Positions 1,687 to 56,281 of a DNA stretch of 64,000 nucleotides are shown piece after piece. Position numbers and translations under genes: made by a program. Below the pieces are notes generated by a model. The model made no database searches and was not told the origin of the DNA. It worked only from the letters and a program-made list of their open reading frames with translations. This stretch comes from an uncultured bacterium (GTDB lineage Bacteria; Myxococcota_A; UBA9160; SMWR01): contig CALDCK010000066.1 in assembly GCA_937937315.1 (NCBI GenBank), positions 16,684-80,683 of the forward strand, given 5' to 3'. Every line of letters begins with the position of its first letter. The stretch's first letter is position 1.

Positions 1687-2136
1687 ATGACCCCCGGCGG
1701 CGAGGAGGACGCGATGGACGGCATGCGGACCGGGCTCGCACATCGTCTGCGGCGAACCGAGAAGCAGATCGTCGAGCAGCACCGTCACATCCGGGAGATC
1801 GGACGCGAGCTCGATCAGGCTGCGGAGAAGGGCCGTTCCGCCGACGTGCGGACCTGGCTCCACCGCCTCGAGGAGGCCCTGAGCGCGCACTTCGAGCTGG
1901 AGGAAGACGTGGTGTTCCCGGCGCTGCACGGCCTCGCGCCGAGCCAGGGCGACGCTCTGGAGGGTCTCGTCCGTGAGCACGGCGAGCTCCTGGTGACACT
2001 GCGTCACGTGCGGGAGGCGACGAGTGAGGCCGAGCAGGGAGACGTGTCCGACGAGCTGCCGGCGTTGCGCGATCGCCTGGGGGACCACGAGCGTCGAGAG
2101 GAGGCCCTCGTCAAGGCGGCGATGTCGCGCGGGTGA
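1687..2136 (+). CDS. Hemerythrin-like (HHE cation-binding) domain protein
   Basis: Tail of track ORF 1543..2136. The sequence has H/E-rich four-helix signatures (EQHRHI, SAHFELEEDVVFPAL, VREHGELL, GDHERREE). Start trimmed to ATG 1687; ATG 1714 is also possible. The upstream part overlaps the GH2 start region. Confidence 0.7.
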   Translation: MTPGGEEDAMDGMRTGLAHRLRRTEKQIVEQHRHIREIGRELDQAAEKGRSADVRTWLHRLEEALSAHFELEEDVVFPALHGLAPSQGDALEGLVREHGELLVTLRHVREATSEAEQGDVSDELPALRDRLGDHERREEALVKAAMSRG

Positions 2137-2246
2137 CGGCTCTGGCGACTTCCTTGGCCCCTGTCGACGGTTTCCTGCGAGGGACCTCGCTGCACGCCGA
2201 GCGGGGAGCTCGGCGCGGGCTCCCTCCCGACCTCGACCGACCTGCG

Positions 2247-2699
2247 TCAGCCCGTCGTCATGTCGATCGAGACGACGTCGTCGCGGAGGACGTCGGGATC
2301 GAGGAAGAACTCCTCCTCCTCGTCCATGTCGGCCCGGAGCGTCTCGATCAGATCCCGGATGTGTGCGGCCAGAATGACCGGCGGCTTCTGCTGCTCCTGG
2401 AGCTCCGCCACCACCCAGGCCAGGAGCTCGCGCTGCTCCCGGTGCTCCTGCTCGAAGCGTTCCGCCCGCTCCTCGCCCCAGGCATCGGACTCGCGCAGGG
2501 CCGGCACGAGATAGCGGTCCTCCCAGCGCATGTGCTCCCGTAGGATCGAGAGCAGGGTCTCCGATGCTTCGCGCAGGTCTCCTACCTGCCTCTGCTCGTC
2601 CTGGCTCAGCGCTCGCGCCAGGCTCTCGACCCGCGTGAGCCGCGCTCGCAGGCCCTCGTGGTCTCGCAGAATTCGGTGGCGGACCTCACTGGGCTGCAT
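2247..2699 (-). CDS. Hemerythrin-like (HHE) domain protein
   Basis: 150-aa ORF with RDHEGLRARL, LREHMRWEDRYLVPAL, FEQEHREQRELL and MDEEEEFFL. This spacing is typical of hemerythrin/HHE metal ligands. Codon third positions are GC-rich. Confidence 0.75.
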   Translation of the reverse strand: MQPSEVRHRILRDHEGLRARLTRVESLARALSQDEQRQVGDLREASETLLSILREHMRWEDRYLVPALRESDAWGEERAERFEQEHREQRELLAWVVAELQEQQKPPVILAAHIRDLIETLRADMDEEEEFFLDPDVLRDDVVSIDMTTG

Positions 2700-2902
2700 C
2701 CGATCCTCCTTCCTCCCACTCGGTGGGAAACCGTCCCTGAGAATCGAAGCAAGATTCGATCCAGCGCCCGAGACGTCACCCAGAGTGCGGAGAGACCTCC
2801 GTCCGGTCGCCGCGACGGGGTACGCGGACCCAGCGAGGGGTTATCTGCCCCAGGTCGAGCCGGCTTCCGGTCGAGCCCGAGGCCCAGAGATGTCCCGGGG
2901 GC

Positions 2903-2918
2903 TGGCACCGTTCGTGCA
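2903..2918 (+). promoter_or_regulatory. Sigma-54 (RpoN) -24/-12 promoter P1: TGGCACCGTTCGTGCA
   Basis: Exact TGGCAC, 5 nt, then GTGCA, so GG and GC have the canonical spacing. It lies 53 nt upstream of the CBS operon ATG (2971). The same architecture recurs at 4643-4658(-) and 6178-6193(+), and a sigma-54 activator gene is in the cluster. Confidence 0.7.
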
Positions 2919-2970
2919 ATTCCATGGACTCCGCTCCGCACGGTTTCGCCGAGCAGCGGAGGAGTCGAGG

Positions 2971-3441
2971 ATGAAGCATTTCGAAGAGCCGGTCTCCCAG
3001 GCGATGGAGACCGAGGTCGTGACACTCCAGAGGGATGATCGGCTCGACCTGGCCGAGGACATCATGCGCCTGGGTCGTATCCGCCATATCCCCGTGCTCG
3101 AGGGCGAGCGCGTAGTAGGCGTTCTCACGAATCGCGACCTGCTGTCCGCGTCGCTCTCCCACGCGCTGGAGTTCGACCCGAGCGAGCGCCGGGCCTTCAT
3201 CCGCTCCGTCGAGGTGAAGGAGGTGATGACGGCGACCGTGGAGACGGTCCCGCCCCACGCCTCGCTGCGCGATGCAGGTCGGACGATGCTGCGCCTGCGG
3301 ATCGGGTGTCTCCCGGTCGTCGACGATGCGGGTGTCTTTCTGGGAATGTTGACCGAGACCGATCTCCTTCGCGCCGCCCTCGAGGTGGACGAAGAGGAGG
3401 ACGCGATCGTCGTCTCGGAATCGAAAGAAGGAGGAGAATAG
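2971..3441 (+). CDS. Stand-alone CBS-pair domain protein
   Basis: Tail of track ORF 2530..3441. Start is ATG 2971, preceded by GGAGGAG. Two CBS repeats are visible (VVTLQRDDRLDLAEDIMRLGRIRHIPVLEGERVVGVLTNRDLL and VMTATVETVPPHASLRDAGRTMLRLRIGCLPVVDDAGVFLGMLTETDLL). Confidence 0.85.
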   Translation: MKHFEEPVSQAMETEVVTLQRDDRLDLAEDIMRLGRIRHIPVLEGERVVGVLTNRDLLSASLSHALEFDPSERRAFIRSVEVKEVMTATVETVPPHASLRDAGRTMLRLRIGCLPVVDDAGVFLGMLTETDLLRAALEVDEEEDAIVVSESKEGGE

Positions 3442-3705
3442 ATGAGTGAGGCGAAGGGTCGCTTCGACGACGAGCTCGACGAGCTGCGCCGGGTGCGCGA
3501 TGAGTTGCGCGTGCAGGCGAGTCTGGGCAAGGCCGAGGCGACAGAGCTCTGGGAGAAGCTCGAGCACCGTTTCGAGGAGCTCGAGGGCAAGGTGAAGGCC
3601 AAAGCGAAGGCCGCCGGCGAGCCTCTGGCGGACATCGGTGACGCGGCCCAGATGCTGGCCGAAGAGATCCGTAACGGCTACCGACGGCTTCGAGACATTC
3701 TCTGA
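3442..3705 (+). CDS. Small charged coiled-coil protein, unknown function
   Basis: 87-aa ORF whose ATG immediately follows the TAG of the upstream CBS gene. Codon usage looks good. The sequence is helical and K/E-rich. No family recognised. Confidence 0.55.
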   Translation: MSEAKGRFDDELDELRRVRDELRVQASLGKAEATELWEKLEHRFEELEGKVKAKAKAAGEPLADIGDAAQMLAEEIRNGYRRLRDIL

Positions 3706-3723
3706 CGACGAGGCGGGGTCCGG

Positions 3724-4161
3724 ATGTACGAGTTTCTCGACTGGCAGGTGCGCGACGTGATGTCGAAGCCCGTCACGACCTCGCCGGGGGCGACCTTGGC
3801 CGAGGTCGAGAGCGTGCTCGAGCATCACGGCTTCGACGGGGTGCCCGTCGTCGATGACGAGGGGCACCTGCTCGGGCTGGCCACGTCGCTGGATCTCCTG
3901 GCCGCCTTCGGCTTCAGTGAGGACTCGACCCTTCCCGCCTACGTCGAGATCATGCAGCGCCCGGTTTCCCGGGTGATGTCGAAGGACGTGCGGACGGTTT
4001 GCCCGAGGACGCCGCTCACTCGTGTCCTCGAGAAGGTCGTCGACACACGGACGCGAAGCTTCCCGGTGGTCGACGACGATCGGGTGGTCGGCGTGGTCTC
4101 CCGGGCGGACGTGATGAGTGCTTTGCGCCGCGCCGGTCTCGGCGAGGTGCCCTCGCCCTGA
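3724..4161 (+). CDS. Stand-alone CBS-pair domain protein
   Basis: 145 aa. CBS repeats are visible (VMSKPVTTSPGATLAEVESVLEHHGFDGVPVVDDEGHLLGLATSLDLL and VMSKDVRTVCPRTPLTRVLEKVVDTRTRSFPVVDDDRVVGVVSRADVM). Confidence 0.85.
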   Translation: MYEFLDWQVRDVMSKPVTTSPGATLAEVESVLEHHGFDGVPVVDDEGHLLGLATSLDLLAAFGFSEDSTLPAYVEIMQRPVSRVMSKDVRTVCPRTPLTRVLEKVVDTRTRSFPVVDDDRVVGVVSRADVMSALRRAGLGEVPSP

Positions 4162-51304: not shown

Positions 51305-52195
51305 TCAGCCGAGGGACTTCTCGAGGATGTCGATCAGCCGGTGGCGGCGGAACCCGACGTTCGCATAGGCCCGCAGCGCGGTGCGATTTGCCGGGGAGAG
51401 CATCAGGAGGCCGGACACGGCGCCGGCCTCGAAGCGACGCCGCAGGGCCCAGGAGGTCAGCGCCGAGCCGAGGCCGTGGCCGCGGAGCTCGCGGGAGACG
51501 CCCACGTAGGCGACCCAGACCCGACGCGGCCAGTGGGTCTCGATCTCGACGAAGCCGGCGAGTGAGTCTCCGCGCCGCGCAACGACGTGGGCGTGGCGTC
51601 CATCGCCGAGGACCTTCTGCATCTGCTCGGGGCCGCGCTCCCCGAAGCCGCACTCCCGGAAGAGCGCGAGGATCGCCTCGCCGTCGCCGGGCTGCGCTTC
51701 CTCGAAGACGATGTCCTCGTCCGGCGGCTCTTCGTCTCGCGGCACCACGTCGCAACGCATGAGGAAGGCCTGCTGGTTGGGGCGGAACCCGTGGCTCGTG
51801 AGCAGCGAGTAGCCGGCGCGATTGCGCGTGCCGATGCCCGCGGTGAGGACGCGGATGCCCAGCGTCCCGGTGGCCAGGTCCTGGGCTGCGCGCAGGAGCT
51901 CGCCGCCGATGCCGTGCCCGCGCTCGCCGCGCTTCACGATCGGGCAGAAGATGCCGGCAGCCGAGTCCCCGGGCTGGCGTAGGAAGCCGATCATTCCCAC
52001 CACCTCGCCGTCGCCGCGATCCGCCACCAGCACGTGGTCCTCGGCGGCGATGCCGAAGCGGGCGAACTCGGCCTCGAGCTCCTCCTCGCTCTCCCAGAGC
52101 GGATTGAGCACGAAGTCGGTCTCCCCCCGCGCGCAGTCGCGGGAGAGCGCGACGAGGGCGGGCAGGTCGTTCGGACGCAGAGATCGGATGTCCAT
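51305..52195 (-). CDS. Tandem GNAT-domain N-acetyltransferase
   Basis: Two acetyl-CoA-binding motifs (RGHGIGGELL; RGHGLGSALT) in a 296-aa protein. The architecture resembles MshD. No substrate can be inferred. Confidence 0.7.
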   Translation of the reverse strand: MDIRSLRPNDLPALVALSRDCARGETDFVLNPLWESEEELEAEFARFGIAAEDHVLVADRGDGEVVGMIGFLRQPGDSAAGIFCPIVKRGERGHGIGGELLRAAQDLATGTLGIRVLTAGIGTRNRAGYSLLTSHGFRPNQQAFLMRCDVVPRDEEPPDEDIVFEEAQPGDGEAILALFRECGFGERGPEQMQKVLGDGRHAHVVARRGDSLAGFVEIETHWPRRVWVAYVGVSRELRGHGLGSALTSWALRRRFEAGAVSGLLMLSPANRTALRAYANVGFRRHRLIDILEKSLG

Positions 52196-52370: not shown

Positions 52371-53969
52371 TCACTCGCCCGCTCCGGAGCCGACCCGGCG
52401 CCGGATGGCCTGGACGATCCGCCCGAGGCCGACGTCGCGACCGCGCGGGATCTGGAAGTAATGGTCTCCATCGTCCTTGACCAGGAAGTTGACCCGCTGC
52501 CCGGTCAGCACCTGCTCGAAGGGCTCGCCGTCTCGCGGCGCATGGTCGAGCTTCGCGAACACGCGCTGGCCCTCGATGTCGAGGAGCGCGACGTGGAGCG
52601 GCTCCCCGCCTCCGGAGGTCACGTAGATCGTGGTCGCGGCCAGCACCGTTGCTCGCGCACCGTCGAGGCCGCTCGGCCGCGTCCGCGACCGGTGCCGCGG
52701 GTGCGACTCGAAGTGAACCCGTGGCTGCGCGACCGCGTCGCGTCGCCGGCGCGCGTCGGTTCGCTCGAGAATCGTGACGTAGTTGTTGTTTCCCGGTCCG
52801 CCGATCGAGTGGGAGAGGCCGATGCGCGCCCTCGGCACCTGGGCCTCGCGGTGGGGGAAGCGGTCGGTCAGCTGGAGGTAGTTCTCGGCGATCTGGAAGA
52901 GACCCGTCCCGCCGACGGGATGTCCCCGGGCCTTGAGTCCACCGGAGAGGTTGGTGGGGATGCGGCCCCGCGGCCCGGTGATGGGATTGCGCAGCGGATC
53001 CACCGGATCGCGGCGCAGATCCCCGACCAGCGCCTCGACGGCGTCCTCCGGGTCGACGAGTCCCAGATCGGCGAGTCCGATGGGCAGCAGGCTGTTGAAG
53101 GCGTCGTGGGCCTCGACCACCAGTCCCTCGAGGGCCCGGGGGCTCGCGATGCCCGCGCGCCAATAGGCAATCCGCGCCGCCTGGCGGGTTGCGTCGAGGC
53201 TGGTCAGGGCGCTGCGATCGAGGATCGAGGAGGTCTCGGTGGCGGAGCCGAGGCCGGCGACGCGGACCGCCTGGGGCTTCGCGGTGAGGATCAGCGCGGC
53301 GGCACCGTCGCAGATTGGAGAGCAGTCCTTGCGCATGAGCGGCGTGGCCACCGGTAGATTGCGCGTGGAGTCGTAGTAGGCGTCGAGGGGCTCGGCCCGG
53401 CCGTAGAAGGCGGCCAGGGGGTTCTTCGCTGCGAGGGCGTGGGCGCGGAACATGAGCCGCGCCAGCACGTCGGAGACGGCCTTGCCCGAGAGGCGGCGTT
53501 CGCGAAACCAGGCCTGGGTGATGAGCGCGATCAGCGCCGGCATCGTGAAACCGAAGCGTCGCTCCTCGGGATCGACGGTCTTGGACATGATCGCGGTGGC
53601 GACATCGGTCGTCACCATCTTCATGCGTTCCCCGCCGAGCACGAGCACGCTCTCGAACTCGCCGGAGGCGATCTTGTAATAGGCCTCGTGGAGTGCGGCG
53701 GCGCCGGTGGAAGAGGCGGTCTCGGTCCGGACCGCGGGGATTCCGGTGAGTCCGAGGCGGTCGGCGATCTTGGTGGCGATGTTGGCGCGGTTCTCGAATT
53801 CCTCGCTGTCCATGATGCCGACCTGGACGGCGTCGAAGGTGCGCACCGAGGTGTCGACCAGCGCAGCCCGGTAGGCTTCGGAGAAGAGATCGAAGATCGA
53901 CGCAAAGATACGACCGGTGAGATCGACCTTCGTGAGGCCGACGGCGGCGACATAGACCTCCCTTCCCAT
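52371..53969 (-). CDS. Thiolase-like (SCP-x/archaeal-type) domain fused to a C-terminal DUF35 OB-fold domain; nucleophile Cys replaced by Ser
   Basis: ATG 53969 (MGREVYVAAVGLT). The thiolase-fold motifs are ...TETASSTGAAALHEAYYKIASGEFESVLVLGGERM..., NLSGGLKARGHPVGGTG and SHSIGGPG. The C-terminal ~110 aa has an OB pattern (GARATVLAATTIYVT...LHVALLDIEGQRVFAKL...GQRVNFLV). The upstream part of the track ORF (to 54425) is junk. Confidence 0.7.
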   Translation of the reverse strand: MGREVYVAAVGLTKVDLTGRIFASIFDLFSEAYRAALVDTSVRTFDAVQVGIMDSEEFENRANIATKIADRLGLTGIPAVRTETASSTGAAALHEAYYKIASGEFESVLVLGGERMKMVTTDVATAIMSKTVDPEERRFGFTMPALIALITQAWFRERRLSGKAVSDVLARLMFRAHALAAKNPLAAFYGRAEPLDAYYDSTRNLPVATPLMRKDCSPICDGAAALILTAKPQAVRVAGLGSATETSSILDRSALTSLDATRQAARIAYWRAGIASPRALEGLVVEAHDAFNSLLPIGLADLGLVDPEDAVEALVGDLRRDPVDPLRNPITGPRGRIPTNLSGGLKARGHPVGGTGLFQIAENYLQLTDRFPHREAQVPRARIGLSHSIGGPGNNNYVTILERTDARRRRDAVAQPRVHFESHPRHRSRTRPSGLDGARATVLAATTIYVTSGGGEPLHVALLDIEGQRVFAKLDHAPRDGEPFEQVLTGQRVNFLVKDDGDHYFQIPRGRDVGLGRIVQAIRRRVGSGAGE

Positions 53970-54075: not shown

Positions 54076-55797
54076 ATGGGAGGTGAGATGCGAACGGCAC
54101 GCCGGTTCCTCATCGCGGTCGCAGTGGCGGCCTTTGCGGTCTGGATCCTGCTTCCCGGCGGCGGTCCGCGGATCGAGGACGGCAGCGTCCTCATCCTCGA
54201 CCTGGAGGGCGAGTTCATCGAGACCGCTGAGCCGCCCTTCTTCGCGCGCTTCCTGGGCAACCGGGGCAGACCCTTCGTCTCGATACTCTCGGAGATCGCC
54301 AAAGCGGAGCGCGACGAGCGCCTGGCCACCGTGATCTTCCGCATCCGCGACCTCTCTCTCGGATGGGCGAAGGCCCAGGAGCTCCGCGATGCCATCGCCG
54401 ACCTCTCCGCGGCGGGACGGCACACGGTTGCCTACCTCGAGCTCGCCAACTTCGGCGCCAATCTCGAGTACTACGTGGCGAGTGCGGCCGACGAGACCTA
54501 CGCGGCGCCGGCCGCGCGCGCTCCAGTGGTGGGCCTGGCGGCGGAGTACCTGTTCCTGGGAGGGCTGTGGGAGCGCTTCGGCGTCGAGGTCGAGGTGGAG
54601 CGCATCGGTCGTTATAAGAGCGCCGCCGAGTCCTTCGCCGGCCGGAGCATGAGCGACGCCACCCGGGAGATGGCGGAGTCGCTGCTCGACTCCGTCGACG
54701 CGCAGTTCGTCGAGGGTATCGCCCAGGGGCGCAGCCTGCCCGAGGAGGCCGTGCGAGATGCCATCGCCGCTGCGCCCATCGACCCGGCCGAGATGCAGAC
54801 CTGGGGGCTCGTGGACGGCGTGATGCAGCTCGACGAGCTGGTCGAGCACCTGGGCGGCGGGGACGTCGTGGACGCCGAGGACTACGCGGCGGTCCTGCCG
54901 TCGGACGTGGGCTTCGACCCGGTCGCCCAATTCGCCCTGGTCTACGGGAGCGGCAATGTGGTCACGGGCAAGGGCCGGGCCTCGCCGAACGGCTCGCCGA
55001 TCCTCGCCTCGGACACGGTCGCCGATGCTCTCGAGAAGGCGGCCGAAGACCCGGAGATCGACGCGATCATCTTCCGGATCGACAGCCCCGGCGGCTCCCC
55101 CCTGGCCTCGGACATCGTGTGGCGCGCGACGCAGCGGGTGAAGGCCGAGGGGAAGCCGATCATCGCCTCCTTCTCGGACGTCGCCGCCTCCGGGGGCTAC
55201 TACGTGGCCGCCGGCAGCGACACCATCGTGGCTTCGCCCGCCAGCATCACCGGGTCGATCGGCGTCTTCGTCCTGCGTCCCGTGCTCGGAGGAGCGCTGG
55301 AGAAGCTCGACATCGGCTTCGAGTCCCTGACGCGGGGCCGCCACGCCGACCTCCAGCTCTCGACCCGTCCCCTCAGCGGTCCGAGCCGCGAGCGACTCCG
55401 CGCGGAGGTGCGATCGATCTACGACCTTTTCGTCGAACGCGTCGCCGACGGGCGGGGAGCGGAGCCGGCGGAGATCGACGCCGTAGCTCGCGGTCGCGTC
55501 TGGACCGGCGCCCAGGCACTCGAGGCGGGTCTCATCGACGAGCTGGGCGGCCTGCGCGCCGCGGTGGCGGTGGGAAAGCGGAGGCTCTCCCTCGACGAGG
55601 ACGCCGACGTCGCCCTCGTCGTCTATCCACCGCCTCGCTCCCTCGCCGATCAGCTGGTCGAGGCGATGGGCGGCGCGCGCCTCACCCTCGTCCCCACTCC
55701 CCTCGACGGCGTCGTCGCACGGGCGCGTCCCTGGCTGCGGGCGCTGGCCGACGGGGCGCCCGCTGCCCTGCTTCCCTTCTCCCTCGAGATCCACTGA
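54076..55797 (+). CDS. sppA: Signal peptide peptidase SppA (67K type, two S49 domains)
   Basis: N-terminal TM anchor and a duplicated ClpP/crotonase-like fold. The Ser nucleophile region is FSDVAASGGYYVAAG, and the sequence also has IFRIDSPGGS and GSIGV. The start could be ATG 54088. Confidence 0.85.
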   Translation: MGGEMRTARRFLIAVAVAAFAVWILLPGGGPRIEDGSVLILDLEGEFIETAEPPFFARFLGNRGRPFVSILSEIAKAERDERLATVIFRIRDLSLGWAKAQELRDAIADLSAAGRHTVAYLELANFGANLEYYVASAADETYAAPAARAPVVGLAAEYLFLGGLWERFGVEVEVERIGRYKSAAESFAGRSMSDATREMAESLLDSVDAQFVEGIAQGRSLPEEAVRDAIAAAPIDPAEMQTWGLVDGVMQLDELVEHLGGGDVVDAEDYAAVLPSDVGFDPVAQFALVYGSGNVVTGKGRASPNGSPILASDTVADALEKAAEDPEIDAIIFRIDSPGGSPLASDIVWRATQRVKAEGKPIIASFSDVAASGGYYVAAGSDTIVASPASITGSIGVFVLRPVLGGALEKLDIGFESLTRGRHADLQLSTRPLSGPSRERLRAEVRSIYDLFVERVADGRGAEPAEIDAVARGRVWTGAQALEAGLIDELGGLRAAVAVGKRRLSLDEDADVALVVYPPPRSLADQLVEAMGGARLTLVPTPLDGVVARARPWLRALADGAPAALLPFSLEIH

Positions 55798-55858: not shown

Positions 55859-56281
55859 GTGCATCTCGAGAAGGAGTTCGACGTCCGTCAGACCCGGGAC
55901 GCCGCCGCGGAGATCGCCAACCGCGACGAGACGCTCCAGGGTCTCTTCCCCGAGACCGAGACCGAGATCGTCGAGCGCGAGGGCAACCGCCGCACGGCCC
56001 AGAGCCACTACACCGCGCTCGGTCGCAGCGGTACGGCGACCTTCCACTTCACCACCCTCGACGACGGCGACGTGGAGTTCGAGAAGGTCTGCGACGGCAA
56101 TGTGTGGCGCGAGCTCAAGGGAAGGCTGAGCTTCCGCACGCGCGGGAAGCGCACCCGCGTCCGCATCGCCCTGGATGGACGCACCCGACCGCTGGTCCCC
56201 GAGTTCACGATCAAGGGGGCGATGCGGGATCAGATCGAAGAGATGGCCGGTGCCCTGCGTGAGAAGCTGGAGGAGTGCTGA
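55859..56281 (+). CDS. SRPBCC-superfamily (START/CoxG-like) protein
   Basis: 140 aa with a beta-rich core and a C-terminal helix (FTIKGAMRDQIEEMAGALREKLEE). GTG start. Family call is from general pattern only. Confidence 0.5.
   Translation: MHLEKEFDVRQTRDAAAEIANRDETLQGLFPETETEIVEREGNRRTAQSHYTALGRSGTATFHFTTLDDGDVEFEKVCDGNVWRELKGRLSFRTRGKRTRVRIALDGRTRPLVPEFTIKGAMRDQIEEMAGALREKLEEC

Follow-up and report, generated by a model that had tools for sequence, protein, structure and literature searches.

In a 64,000-nucleotide stretch of DNA from an uncultured bacterium of the Myxococcota_A lineage (GenBank assembly GCA_937937315.1, contig CALDCK010000066.1, positions 16,684 to 80,683 of the forward strand; hereafter the window), a gene of 532 codons encodes a thiolase-fold protein that lacks both catalytic cysteines and carries, in the same chain, a C-terminal OB fold of the DUF35 type without a zinc ribbon. 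On the best reading of its sequence and of those of its relatives, this protein would be an active enzyme on acyl-CoA substrates that does not perform thiolysis and has its DUF35 clamp built in. For the chemistry itself we favour, with a probability of roughly 40 per cent, acyl transfer through an acyl-O-Ser86 intermediate.

The gene and the catalytic part of its product comprise the following features:

52371..53969, minus strand: whole gene, 532 amino acids (aa) plus stop (protein P0001), with a stop-free translation and full-length orthologues that are 65–80% identical

52761..53969, minus strand: thiolase-like domain, residues 1–403, of the archaeal/SCP-x type (Pfam, NCBIfam, AlphaFold2 [AF2] model and VIA structure comparison)

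53712..53714, minus strand: codon TCT of Ser86, in the column of the acyl-accepting Cys (aligned to 7yvy and 6esq)

53097..53108, minus strand: HDAF motif, His288-Asp289-Ala290-Phe291, counterpart of the SCP2-type HDCF and of the YDHF/YDCY of Ltp2 and Sal

52911..52925, minus strand: GHPVG motif with His350, the oxyanion-hole His of thiolases (aligned to solved thiolases; His in 97 of 98 family members)

By fold, the protein belongs to the thiolase superfamily, on its archaeal/SCP-x-type branch. Residues 24–403 are covered by the Pfam models Thiolase_N (E 1.3e-14) and Thiolase_C_1 (E 4.4e-23), both above their cut-offs. At 242 bits, the score of the best NCBIfam model, PRK06064, falls short of the 420-bit cut-off (AcCoTHIOL_METTL: 177.6 bits against 600), and the protein therefore stands outside every named thiolase family. 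Searched against PDB sequences with phmmer, it aligns end-to-end both with 7yvy, the thiolase of Pyrococcus furiosus (E 3e-47), and with 6esq (E 6e-37), the Methanothermococcus thiolase from the thiolase/HMG-CoA synthase (HMGCS)/DUF35 complex of M. thermolithotrophicus (6esq/6et9). The full-length AF2 model, built on a 98-sequence alignment, has a mean pLDDT of 93.7 and a pTM of 0.93, with the thiolase domain above pLDDT 90; VIA places that domain on 6et9_C with a Z of 55.9 and a root-mean-square deviation of 1.6 Å over 376 residues (33% identity). Many of the top fold matches are DUF35-partnered subunits (6et9, 9vbt/9vbo, 5m3k, 9skm, 7pxp, 6ok1 and 9myr).

At the nucleophile column, the EAACASG of 7yvy and 6esq aligns with ETAS86STG here in the phmmer alignments. 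The initial annotation, which had described a Cys-less thiolase-fold protein reading TASSTG at this point and keeping a His-containing GHP motif, is borne out in both respects: no Cys had been mis-registered, and GHPVG with His350 aligns with the solved thiolases. Position 86 is Ser in 97% of the 98 family members and Cys in none, and Ser or Thr stands there in all 88 fused relatives placed in our tree. The second acid/base Cys is absent in both of its forms: the EVHDCF of 6esq aligns with EAHDA290F, so that the Cys of the SCP2-type HDCF is Ala290, and the classical C-x-GG reads S388-I-G-G. Within HDAF, the H, D and F are present in 98 of 98 family members and the A in 97, and HDAF also occurs in 12 of 35 Cys-bearing relatives. 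The residues that polarize the thioester carbonyl are kept, namely His288 (HDxF), Asn340, His350 (GHP) and the GG loop at 390–391. With both catalytic Cys positions replaced, the protein cannot, as read from its sequence, be a canonical Cys-dependent thiolase.

Its closest known counterpart in both sequence and fold is the archaeal acetoacetyl-CoA thiolase with its DUF35 partner (6esq/6et9; PFC_04095, 7yvy; S. acidocaldarius Saci_1121/1120). The two have in common the HDxF, GHP and N-x-SGG motifs and a DUF35 OB module. They differ in that Ser86 replaces Cys and Ser388 replaces Asn, in the family-specific R137, M143 and N395/N396, and in the DUF35 domain, which is here C-terminally fused and free of a zinc ribbon. 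Nor was an HMGCS found in the genome of the window (84.5% complete; no match to PF08540 or PF01154), which extends the earlier observation that neither a hydratase nor an HMG-CoA synthase partner lies beside the gene.

The C-terminal tail, residues 404–532, is made up of three parts:

52656..52760, minus strand: Arg/His-rich linker, residues 404–438, with no regular secondary structure (pLDDT 76–94 in the full model)

52449..52655, minus strand: zinc-less DUF35-type OB fold, residues 439–507, five strands in the AF2 models (also hhalign and Foldseek)

52389..52427, minus strand: C-terminal basic helix, residues 515–527 (IVQAIRRRV...), helical in both AF2 models (pLDDT 57–62 in the full model)

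The OB part of about 110 aa in the initial annotation is thereby retained in kind and refined in extent to a 35-aa basic linker, an OB barrel and a basic helix. There is no Cys in residues 404–532 and therefore no zinc ribbon of the rubredoxin-like Cys4 (or Cys3His) type, as had been noted from the missing CxxC. Of the two parts of a DUF35 protein, the OB fold is present and the ribbon is not. Scored directly against PF01796 (OB_ChsH2_C), the tail alone reaches 16.4 bits (E 0.009), below the cut-off of 27.1 bits; 10 of 29 family members reach this model at E <= 0.01, the best at 4.4e-7. Compared profile to profile with hhalign, 69 fused tails match the profile of the separate DUF35-like partners described below with 99.3% probability (E 2.5e-20, 69 columns corresponding to residues 431–507). 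The isolated tail model (pLDDT 80.6) gives, as its 12 best Foldseek matches among 350,542 PDB chains, DUF35 subunits in every case (E 0.007–0.04), including BbsA 7pxp, 6esq_E/F/G, MucABC 9vbo_G, ChsH2 6ok1_B/D and PhlB 9skh_E. In VIA, the tail scores Z 7.9 to 9vbo_G and 7.5 to 6ok1_B, and ribosomal S12-type OB folds tie with these. We therefore dropped structure alone as proof of DUF35 as opposed to any OB fold, and the assignment rests on the sequence profiles and the split forms.

These split forms occur in Thermoplasmata, Elusimicrobiota, Lindowbacteria and Methylomirabilota, in which the thiolase-like gene ends at about 375 codons and a gene for a protein of 100–150 aa comes next, its start codon usually overlapping the preceding stop codon. 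Most of the partners combine an OB fold with a CxxC...CxxC ribbon; two Elusimicrobia loci have a bare OB of 70–79 aa instead. Of four partners scanned against PF01796, two pass (33.1 and 44.5 bits), one lies below (22.2 bits) and one, a bare OB, has no match; one scanned partner reaches zf-ChsH2 (PF12172) at threshold. The linker at 404–438 occupies the place of the stop/start junction and the zinc ribbon of the split relatives. On these profiles and gene arrangements, the tail is a DUF35 OB domain with a linker in place of its zinc ribbon, and the protein is the single-chain form of a two-subunit thiolase-like/DUF35 module, an equivalence already proposed in the initial annotation and now visible in relatives that encode the same two parts as separate genes.

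An Arg/Lys-rich basic helix also ends several distant fused relatives (P0129, P0132, P0139, P0141, P0142 and P0143), and the split DUF35 proteins of Methylomirabilota likewise end in a basic helix; such a helix could bind membranes or nucleic acids. In one relative of the window's genome, a separate 134-aa open frame (G013:C225:13590-13907) matches the OB tail only (residues 425–527, 55% identity) and lies about 1.7 kb from the full-length orthologue of that genome. It may represent a duplicated OB domain standing on its own.

A search of 5.8 billion proteins returned 1121 matches. The best 120 of these are 525–577 aa long (one fragment aside) and 74–85% identical, and the named ones among them come from Myxococcota metagenome-assembled genomes (MAGs) and bear the database label ‘acetyl-CoA acetyltransferase’. 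In a comparison set of 41 relatives of the window's genome, 28 have one full-length orthologue at 68–80% identity and two more have contig-end fragments of it; 11 have no orthologue, some of them being 94–99% complete. In each relative, ordinary thiolases come next, at E ~1e-30, which sets the orthologue group sharply apart. Of 151 Myxococcota genomes sampled evenly, 10 have the gene, every one in the window's class, within which it is single-copy, 65–80% identical and patchy in occurrence. One of the 28 orthologues (G021:C7:613995-615585) is in two overlapping pieces (residues 1–282 and 260–529) and contains an in-frame TAG. A frameshift, some other break in the gene or a misassembly may account for this.

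The family extends well beyond this class. A search of representatives at 50% identity yielded fused relatives of 455–543 aa at 33–66% identity, and cluster look-ups together with a scan of 185,579 species genomes (with a seven-sequence alignment as query) found fused or split relatives at 35–50% identity, nearly all with Ser or Thr at position 86, in at least 10 other phyla and in Thermoplasmata. Fused forms are found in Dadabacteria-like MAGs, Thermodesulfobacteriota (Syntrophaceae, Desulfarculaceae, Dethiosulfatarculus sandiegensis), Aquificota (Thermosulfidibacter), Deferribacter (D. desulfuricans SSM1, D. thermophilus), Binatia, Tectomicrobia and Nitrospinota. Among the fused copies from 80 loci, ETASSxG is present in all but two broken or truncated ones (one ETTSSTG), and HDAF and GHPxG are present in all but three. 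In a FastTree phylogeny of 169 thiolase domains—a fast tree with several long branches—a group of 111 sequences (support 86) contains all 88 fused Ser/Thr86 proteins together with the split forms, apart from the 35 Cys-bearing thiolases. The split forms nest among the fused ones, so fusion or fission occurred more than once.

Conservation within the family is concentrated in ways that bear on whether the protein is an enzyme. Across the 98 members, from more than 10 phyla, 50 positions of the thiolase domain are conserved at 97% or above. Those held in common with true thiolases are E83, M116, E136, N183, D221, R252, E286, H288, D289, F291, N340, K346 and H350. A further 11 positions form a signature of the family (at least 90% conserved within it and the same in at most 20% of the 35 Cys-thiolases): E56, T84, S86, S87, A90, G113, R137, M143, S388, N395 and N396. 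Of these, M143 is Phe in thiolases, and S388, in the column of the classical C-x-GG Cys, is Asn; several signature residues are located on two loops, that of the nucleophile and that bearing the second catalytic Cys of classical thiolases. Identity of the protein across the order is 68–80%, about that of LeuA, as against 50–73% for sppA and for the genes of the GNAT protein and the hydrolase near it. A hydroxyl at position 86 (Ser, or Thr in Methylomirabilota) is kept in the fused and in most of the split forms. We take this pattern of substitution to reflect remodelling of the active site under selection and not its decay.

The same pattern tells against a pseudoenzyme, that is, an acyl-CoA- or lipid-binding, scaffolding or regulatory protein whose partner is encoded elsewhere. 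Such a role, which the initial annotation had offered in the form of a non-catalytic scaffold, would accord with the loss of both catalytic Cys and has precedents. MsTLP1 (4EGV), solved in 2012, combines a thiolase-like domain with a C-terminal beta-barrel, has no thiolase activity and no assigned function, and shows Gly at the nucleophile position, YSCF for NEAF/HDCF, GGL for GHP, and NGG (PMC3406046). The present protein would then be comparable to MsTLP1 or to the dead HMG-CoA synthase (HMGS)-DUF35 partners. In known complexes, DUF35 modules serve as scaffolds (PMC12960953); the DUF35 protein Trf (6htj) works in translation (PMC6996347), and the basic linker and tail helix of the present protein could bind membranes or nucleic acids. 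The resemblance to MsTLP1 lies in its architecture, a single chain with a Cys-less thiolase-like domain followed by a C-terminal antiparallel beta-barrel. Its fingerprints are not those found here, where S86, HDAF, GHP and SIGG stand in their places. MsTLP1 gives the longest alignment among the Foldseek matches (538 columns), at 18% identity, and we rejected 4EGV as the best structural relative because it lies outside the 50 best VIA matches. Unlike in MsTLP1 (PMC3406046), the HDxF, GHP, Asn340 and GG loop are near-invariant over more than 10 phyla. Moreover, the family adds conserved active-site-loop residues of its own, and no adjacent partner gene is conserved in any two lineages. On balance, we regard a non-catalytic role as unlikely.

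When the open reading frames (ORFs) around the 80 related loci were clustered, no partner gene proved to be conserved across lineages. The neighbours that recur are lineage-specific and non-metabolic: Aquificota-like loci have dnaX-ybaB-recR upstream, Binatia-like loci have a GntR/FCD regulator downstream, and a RodZ-like gene and a sigma-54 regulator also recur. With no fixed operon partner, the gene looks self-contained, which fits an enzyme that works by itself.

We propose that the fused OB domain would do in cis what DUF35 subunits do in trans, stabilizing the fold and shaping the substrate cleft. DUF35 proteins are needed for soluble and active partners (bioRxiv 10.1101/2024.07.05.601840; PMC12960953), and DUF35 subunits shape the substrate cleft (PMC12329534). 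The enzyme would act on a CoA-type thioester, with neither Cys-dependent thiolysis nor Claisen condensation. Ser86, activated by His350 or His288, would form an acyl-O-Ser86 intermediate, from which the acyl group would be transferred. Because Arg137 is family-specific, we further suggest that the substrate may carry a carboxylate, with Arg137 as its putative contact.

This scheme resembles that of DpsC and those of the DUF35-dependent acyltransferases PhlABC and MucABC. DpsC is a self-acylating acyltransferase of thiolase fold that uses a Ser nucleophile (Ser118-His297-Asp302; PMC12664062), and its likeness to the present protein is the Ser in place of the nucleophilic Cys within a thiolase-superfamily fold. 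It differs in belonging to the KAS III branch, in lacking a DUF35 domain, in its Ser-His-Asp triad and in its setting in a type II polyketide synthase (PKS) cluster; no sequence relationship between the two was seen beyond superfamily level. PhlABC (5m3k) and MucABC (9vbo) have a thiolase-fold catalytic subunit reliant on DUF35, and their subunits PhlC and MucB rank with the best matches to the present fold (Z 50–52.7). In these systems and in the PfACAT/HMGS-DUF35 complex, unlike in the protein described here, the nucleophile is still a Cys (Cys88 in PhlC), HDxF is gone, and a third subunit, resembling HMGS, is required. The DUF35 domain of PfACAT/HMGS-DUF35 is fused to a dead HMGS and not to the thiolase (PMC12960953), whereas here it is fused to the thiolase-like chain. 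Fusions of DUF35 to thiolase-superfamily domains were noted in 2010 (PMC2954200), and HMGS-DUF35 fusions were characterized in 2026 (PMC12960953); our literature searches found no published description of a Ser86, zinc-less family that retains HDAF and GHP.

Several points weigh against this proposal. Engineered Cys-to-Ser forms of thiolase-fold enzymes have structure entries of their own (3zbl and 9skm, known by their titles). The protein has no third, Asp-type triad residue as in DpsC. The gene is patchy (10 of 151 Myxococcota genomes, absent from 11 of 41 close relatives) and therefore dispensable. Two Thermoplasmata split forms nested in the clade have Pro86 (DNAPASG), so the hydroxyl is not indispensable everywhere, and the Thr86 of Methylomirabilota would be an unusual nucleophile. 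Since Pro86 and Thr86 count against an indispensable Ser nucleophile, they bring the acyl-Ser86 scheme close to its main competitor, a non-covalent C–C lyase.

Such a lyase would catalyse a retro-aldol or retro-Claisen reaction, or the reverse condensation, on a 3-hydroxyacyl- or 3-oxoacyl-CoA, performing a function like that of Ltp2 or Sal with other residues: His288 or His350 would be the general base/acid, the oxyanion holes would stabilize the enolate, and Ser86 and Ser388 would serve as hydrogen-bond donors only. Residue 86 being non-nucleophilic in this scheme, the Pro86 and Thr86 of some clade members are more easily accommodated, and the oxyanion-hole residues are retained. The general design is also that of the steroid aldolases (6ok1, 9myr; PMC12329534): the Ltp2-ChsH2(DUF35) complex 6ok1 and the Sal-Shy(DUF35) complex 9myr likewise pair a Cys-less thiolase fold with a DUF35 domain, and the OB tail of the present protein resembles the DUF35 of ChsH2 (Foldseek E 0.02, VIA Z 7.5).

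The particulars differ. In TcLtp2, Tyr294 of Y-D-H-F is the base and Tyr344 the acid; in CtSal, Tyr302 and Cys304 of Y-D-C-Y are catalytic and Gly occupies the nucleophile position; both motifs are counterparts of the HDCF of SCP2-type thiolases (PMC12329534). In the HDAF of the present protein, His stands in place of the Tyr of YDHF/YDCY, and Ala290 in place of the Cys304 of Sal. The spacing from HDAF to GHP is 50 residues in family members without the Myxococcota-specific insert (H276 and H326 in P0141), as is the distance from Tyr294 to Tyr344 in TcLtp2, which makes His350 the most likely counterpart of Tyr344. In fold the protein is closer to true thiolases, with Z 43.6 and 20% identity to Ltp2 (6ok1_C) and Z 43.2 and 19% to Sal (9myr_A), as against Z 55.9 and 33% to 6et9_C. 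The DUF35 domain is fused to the hydratase in the Ltp2 and Sal systems and to the thiolase-like chain here. Finally, Ltp2 and Sal belong to a steroid-catabolic operon with a MaoC-type hydratase, whereas this locus shows no steroid context, and no MaoC/hot-dog hydratase is adjacent to the gene or found among the recurrent neighbours of the 80 related loci. Judged by its motifs, the protein shares the design principle of Ltp2 and Sal but fails their defining features and is not a member of their group. The analogy with an Ltp2-type aldolase drawn in the initial annotation is thus not sustained, and we consider a C–C lyase of any kind rather unlikely.

A further alternative is a decarboxylase of malonyl-type CoA esters or a decarboxylating condensing enzyme, working through a His-His/Asn oxyanion hole without an acyl-enzyme, or else a slow, residual Ser thiolase. 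By motif equivalence, Ser86, His288 and His350 would occupy the places of the KAS I/II-like Cys-His-His set; the family-specific Arg137 could bind the carboxylate, and TbSLP is known to decarboxylate malonyl-CoA slowly (as cited in PMC12329534). That rate is very low, however (kcat 0.005 per s, cited in PMC12329534), the true function of TbSLP is unassigned, and neither an acyl carrier protein nor a PKS or fatty-acid synthase context appears at the locus or among the clustered related loci. We regard this alternative as very unlikely.

Returning to the favoured reading of an active, non-thiolytic enzyme, we tentatively suggest that the Ser86 thiolase-like/DUF35 proteins form a distinct and ancient family, spread over more than 10 bacterial phyla and Thermoplasmata, that may carry out in primary metabolism a CoA-thioester reaction new to the thiolase fold, be it Ser-dependent acyl transfer or cofactor-free C–C cleavage or formation. 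On that reading, thousands of ‘acetyl-CoA acetyltransferase’ annotations would be in error. The uniform labelling of the family as acetyl-CoA acetyltransferase/thiolase is almost certainly wrong and would distort metabolic reconstructions of MAG-dominated phyla; the carriers are mostly uncultured lineages, and the few in culture include Deferribacter and Dethiosulfatarculus. A picture of thiolase/DUF35 modules as versatile C–C bond machines is emerging, with known roles in the archaeal mevalonate pathway and fatty-acid synthesis and as steroid aldolases, benzoylsuccinyl-CoA thiolase and Friedel-Crafts acyltransferases. The present family is a further branch, with neither catalytic Cys, an otherwise near-invariant active site and an internalized DUF35 helper. 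If active, it would offer enzymology and biocatalysis a natural serine-based thiolase fold, and its split and fused pairs make a clean system for studying the effect of DUF35 on its partner.

The gene model itself is straightforward. The ORF has a GC content at third codon positions of 0.87 in a window of 70% GC. Its open frame reaches upstream to a GTG at 54425, and the ATG at 53969 is the start: homologues share MxxEVY at the same N-terminal point, and the coordinates given in the initial annotation are therefore right. A sequencing error at Ser86 is ruled out by the conservation of the column in 98 homologues. Selenocysteine or read-through at the active site was also considered and rejected; two orthologues (G014 and G019) had been flagged with an in-frame TGA, and that of G014 is a stop codon overrun by the match.

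Around the gene, the following features were recorded:

51305..52195, minus strand: tandem-GNAT gene, 296 aa with two GNAT domains, same strand, 175 bp downstream

54076..55797, plus strand: sppA (Pfam Peptidase_S49), upstream and divergent

55859-56281, plus strand: 140-aa ORF without a Pfam match, between sppA and an alpha/beta-hydrolase gene

The neighbours are thus those named in the initial annotation, with the GNAT gene downstream and sppA divergent upstream. The sppA gene is adjacent and divergent in all 13 related loci within the order, and its adjacency to family members is not kept in other phyla. A GNAT gene lies within 10 kb in 9 of the 13 loci. Over the 41 relatives its co-occurrence with the thiolase-like gene is imperfect (both in 23, only the thiolase-like gene in 7, only the GNAT gene in 4, neither in 7), and we rejected it as an obligate partner. 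On the sppA side, 12 of 13 related loci carry the 140-aa ORF at the same place (51–74% identity), with the alpha/beta-hydrolase gene beyond it. Farther afield, in 10 loci of Aquificota/Deferribacteres-like MAGs (L033–L037, L039, L042, L057, L065 and L076), the fused gene directly follows dnaX-ybaB-recR on the same strand and is itself often followed by a Methyltransf_28 gene.

The window's genome also contains 11 DUF35 domains of canonical type, and several have an ordinary thiolase next to them. On contig C475, at about 1778-3791 (L113 and L117), an ACP_syn_III_C/HMGS-like domain and a DUF35 OB share one 526-aa frame, which is followed by an ordinary thiolase; conventional modules like this were published in 2026, and the arrangement contrasts with the fused Ser86 protein of the same genome.

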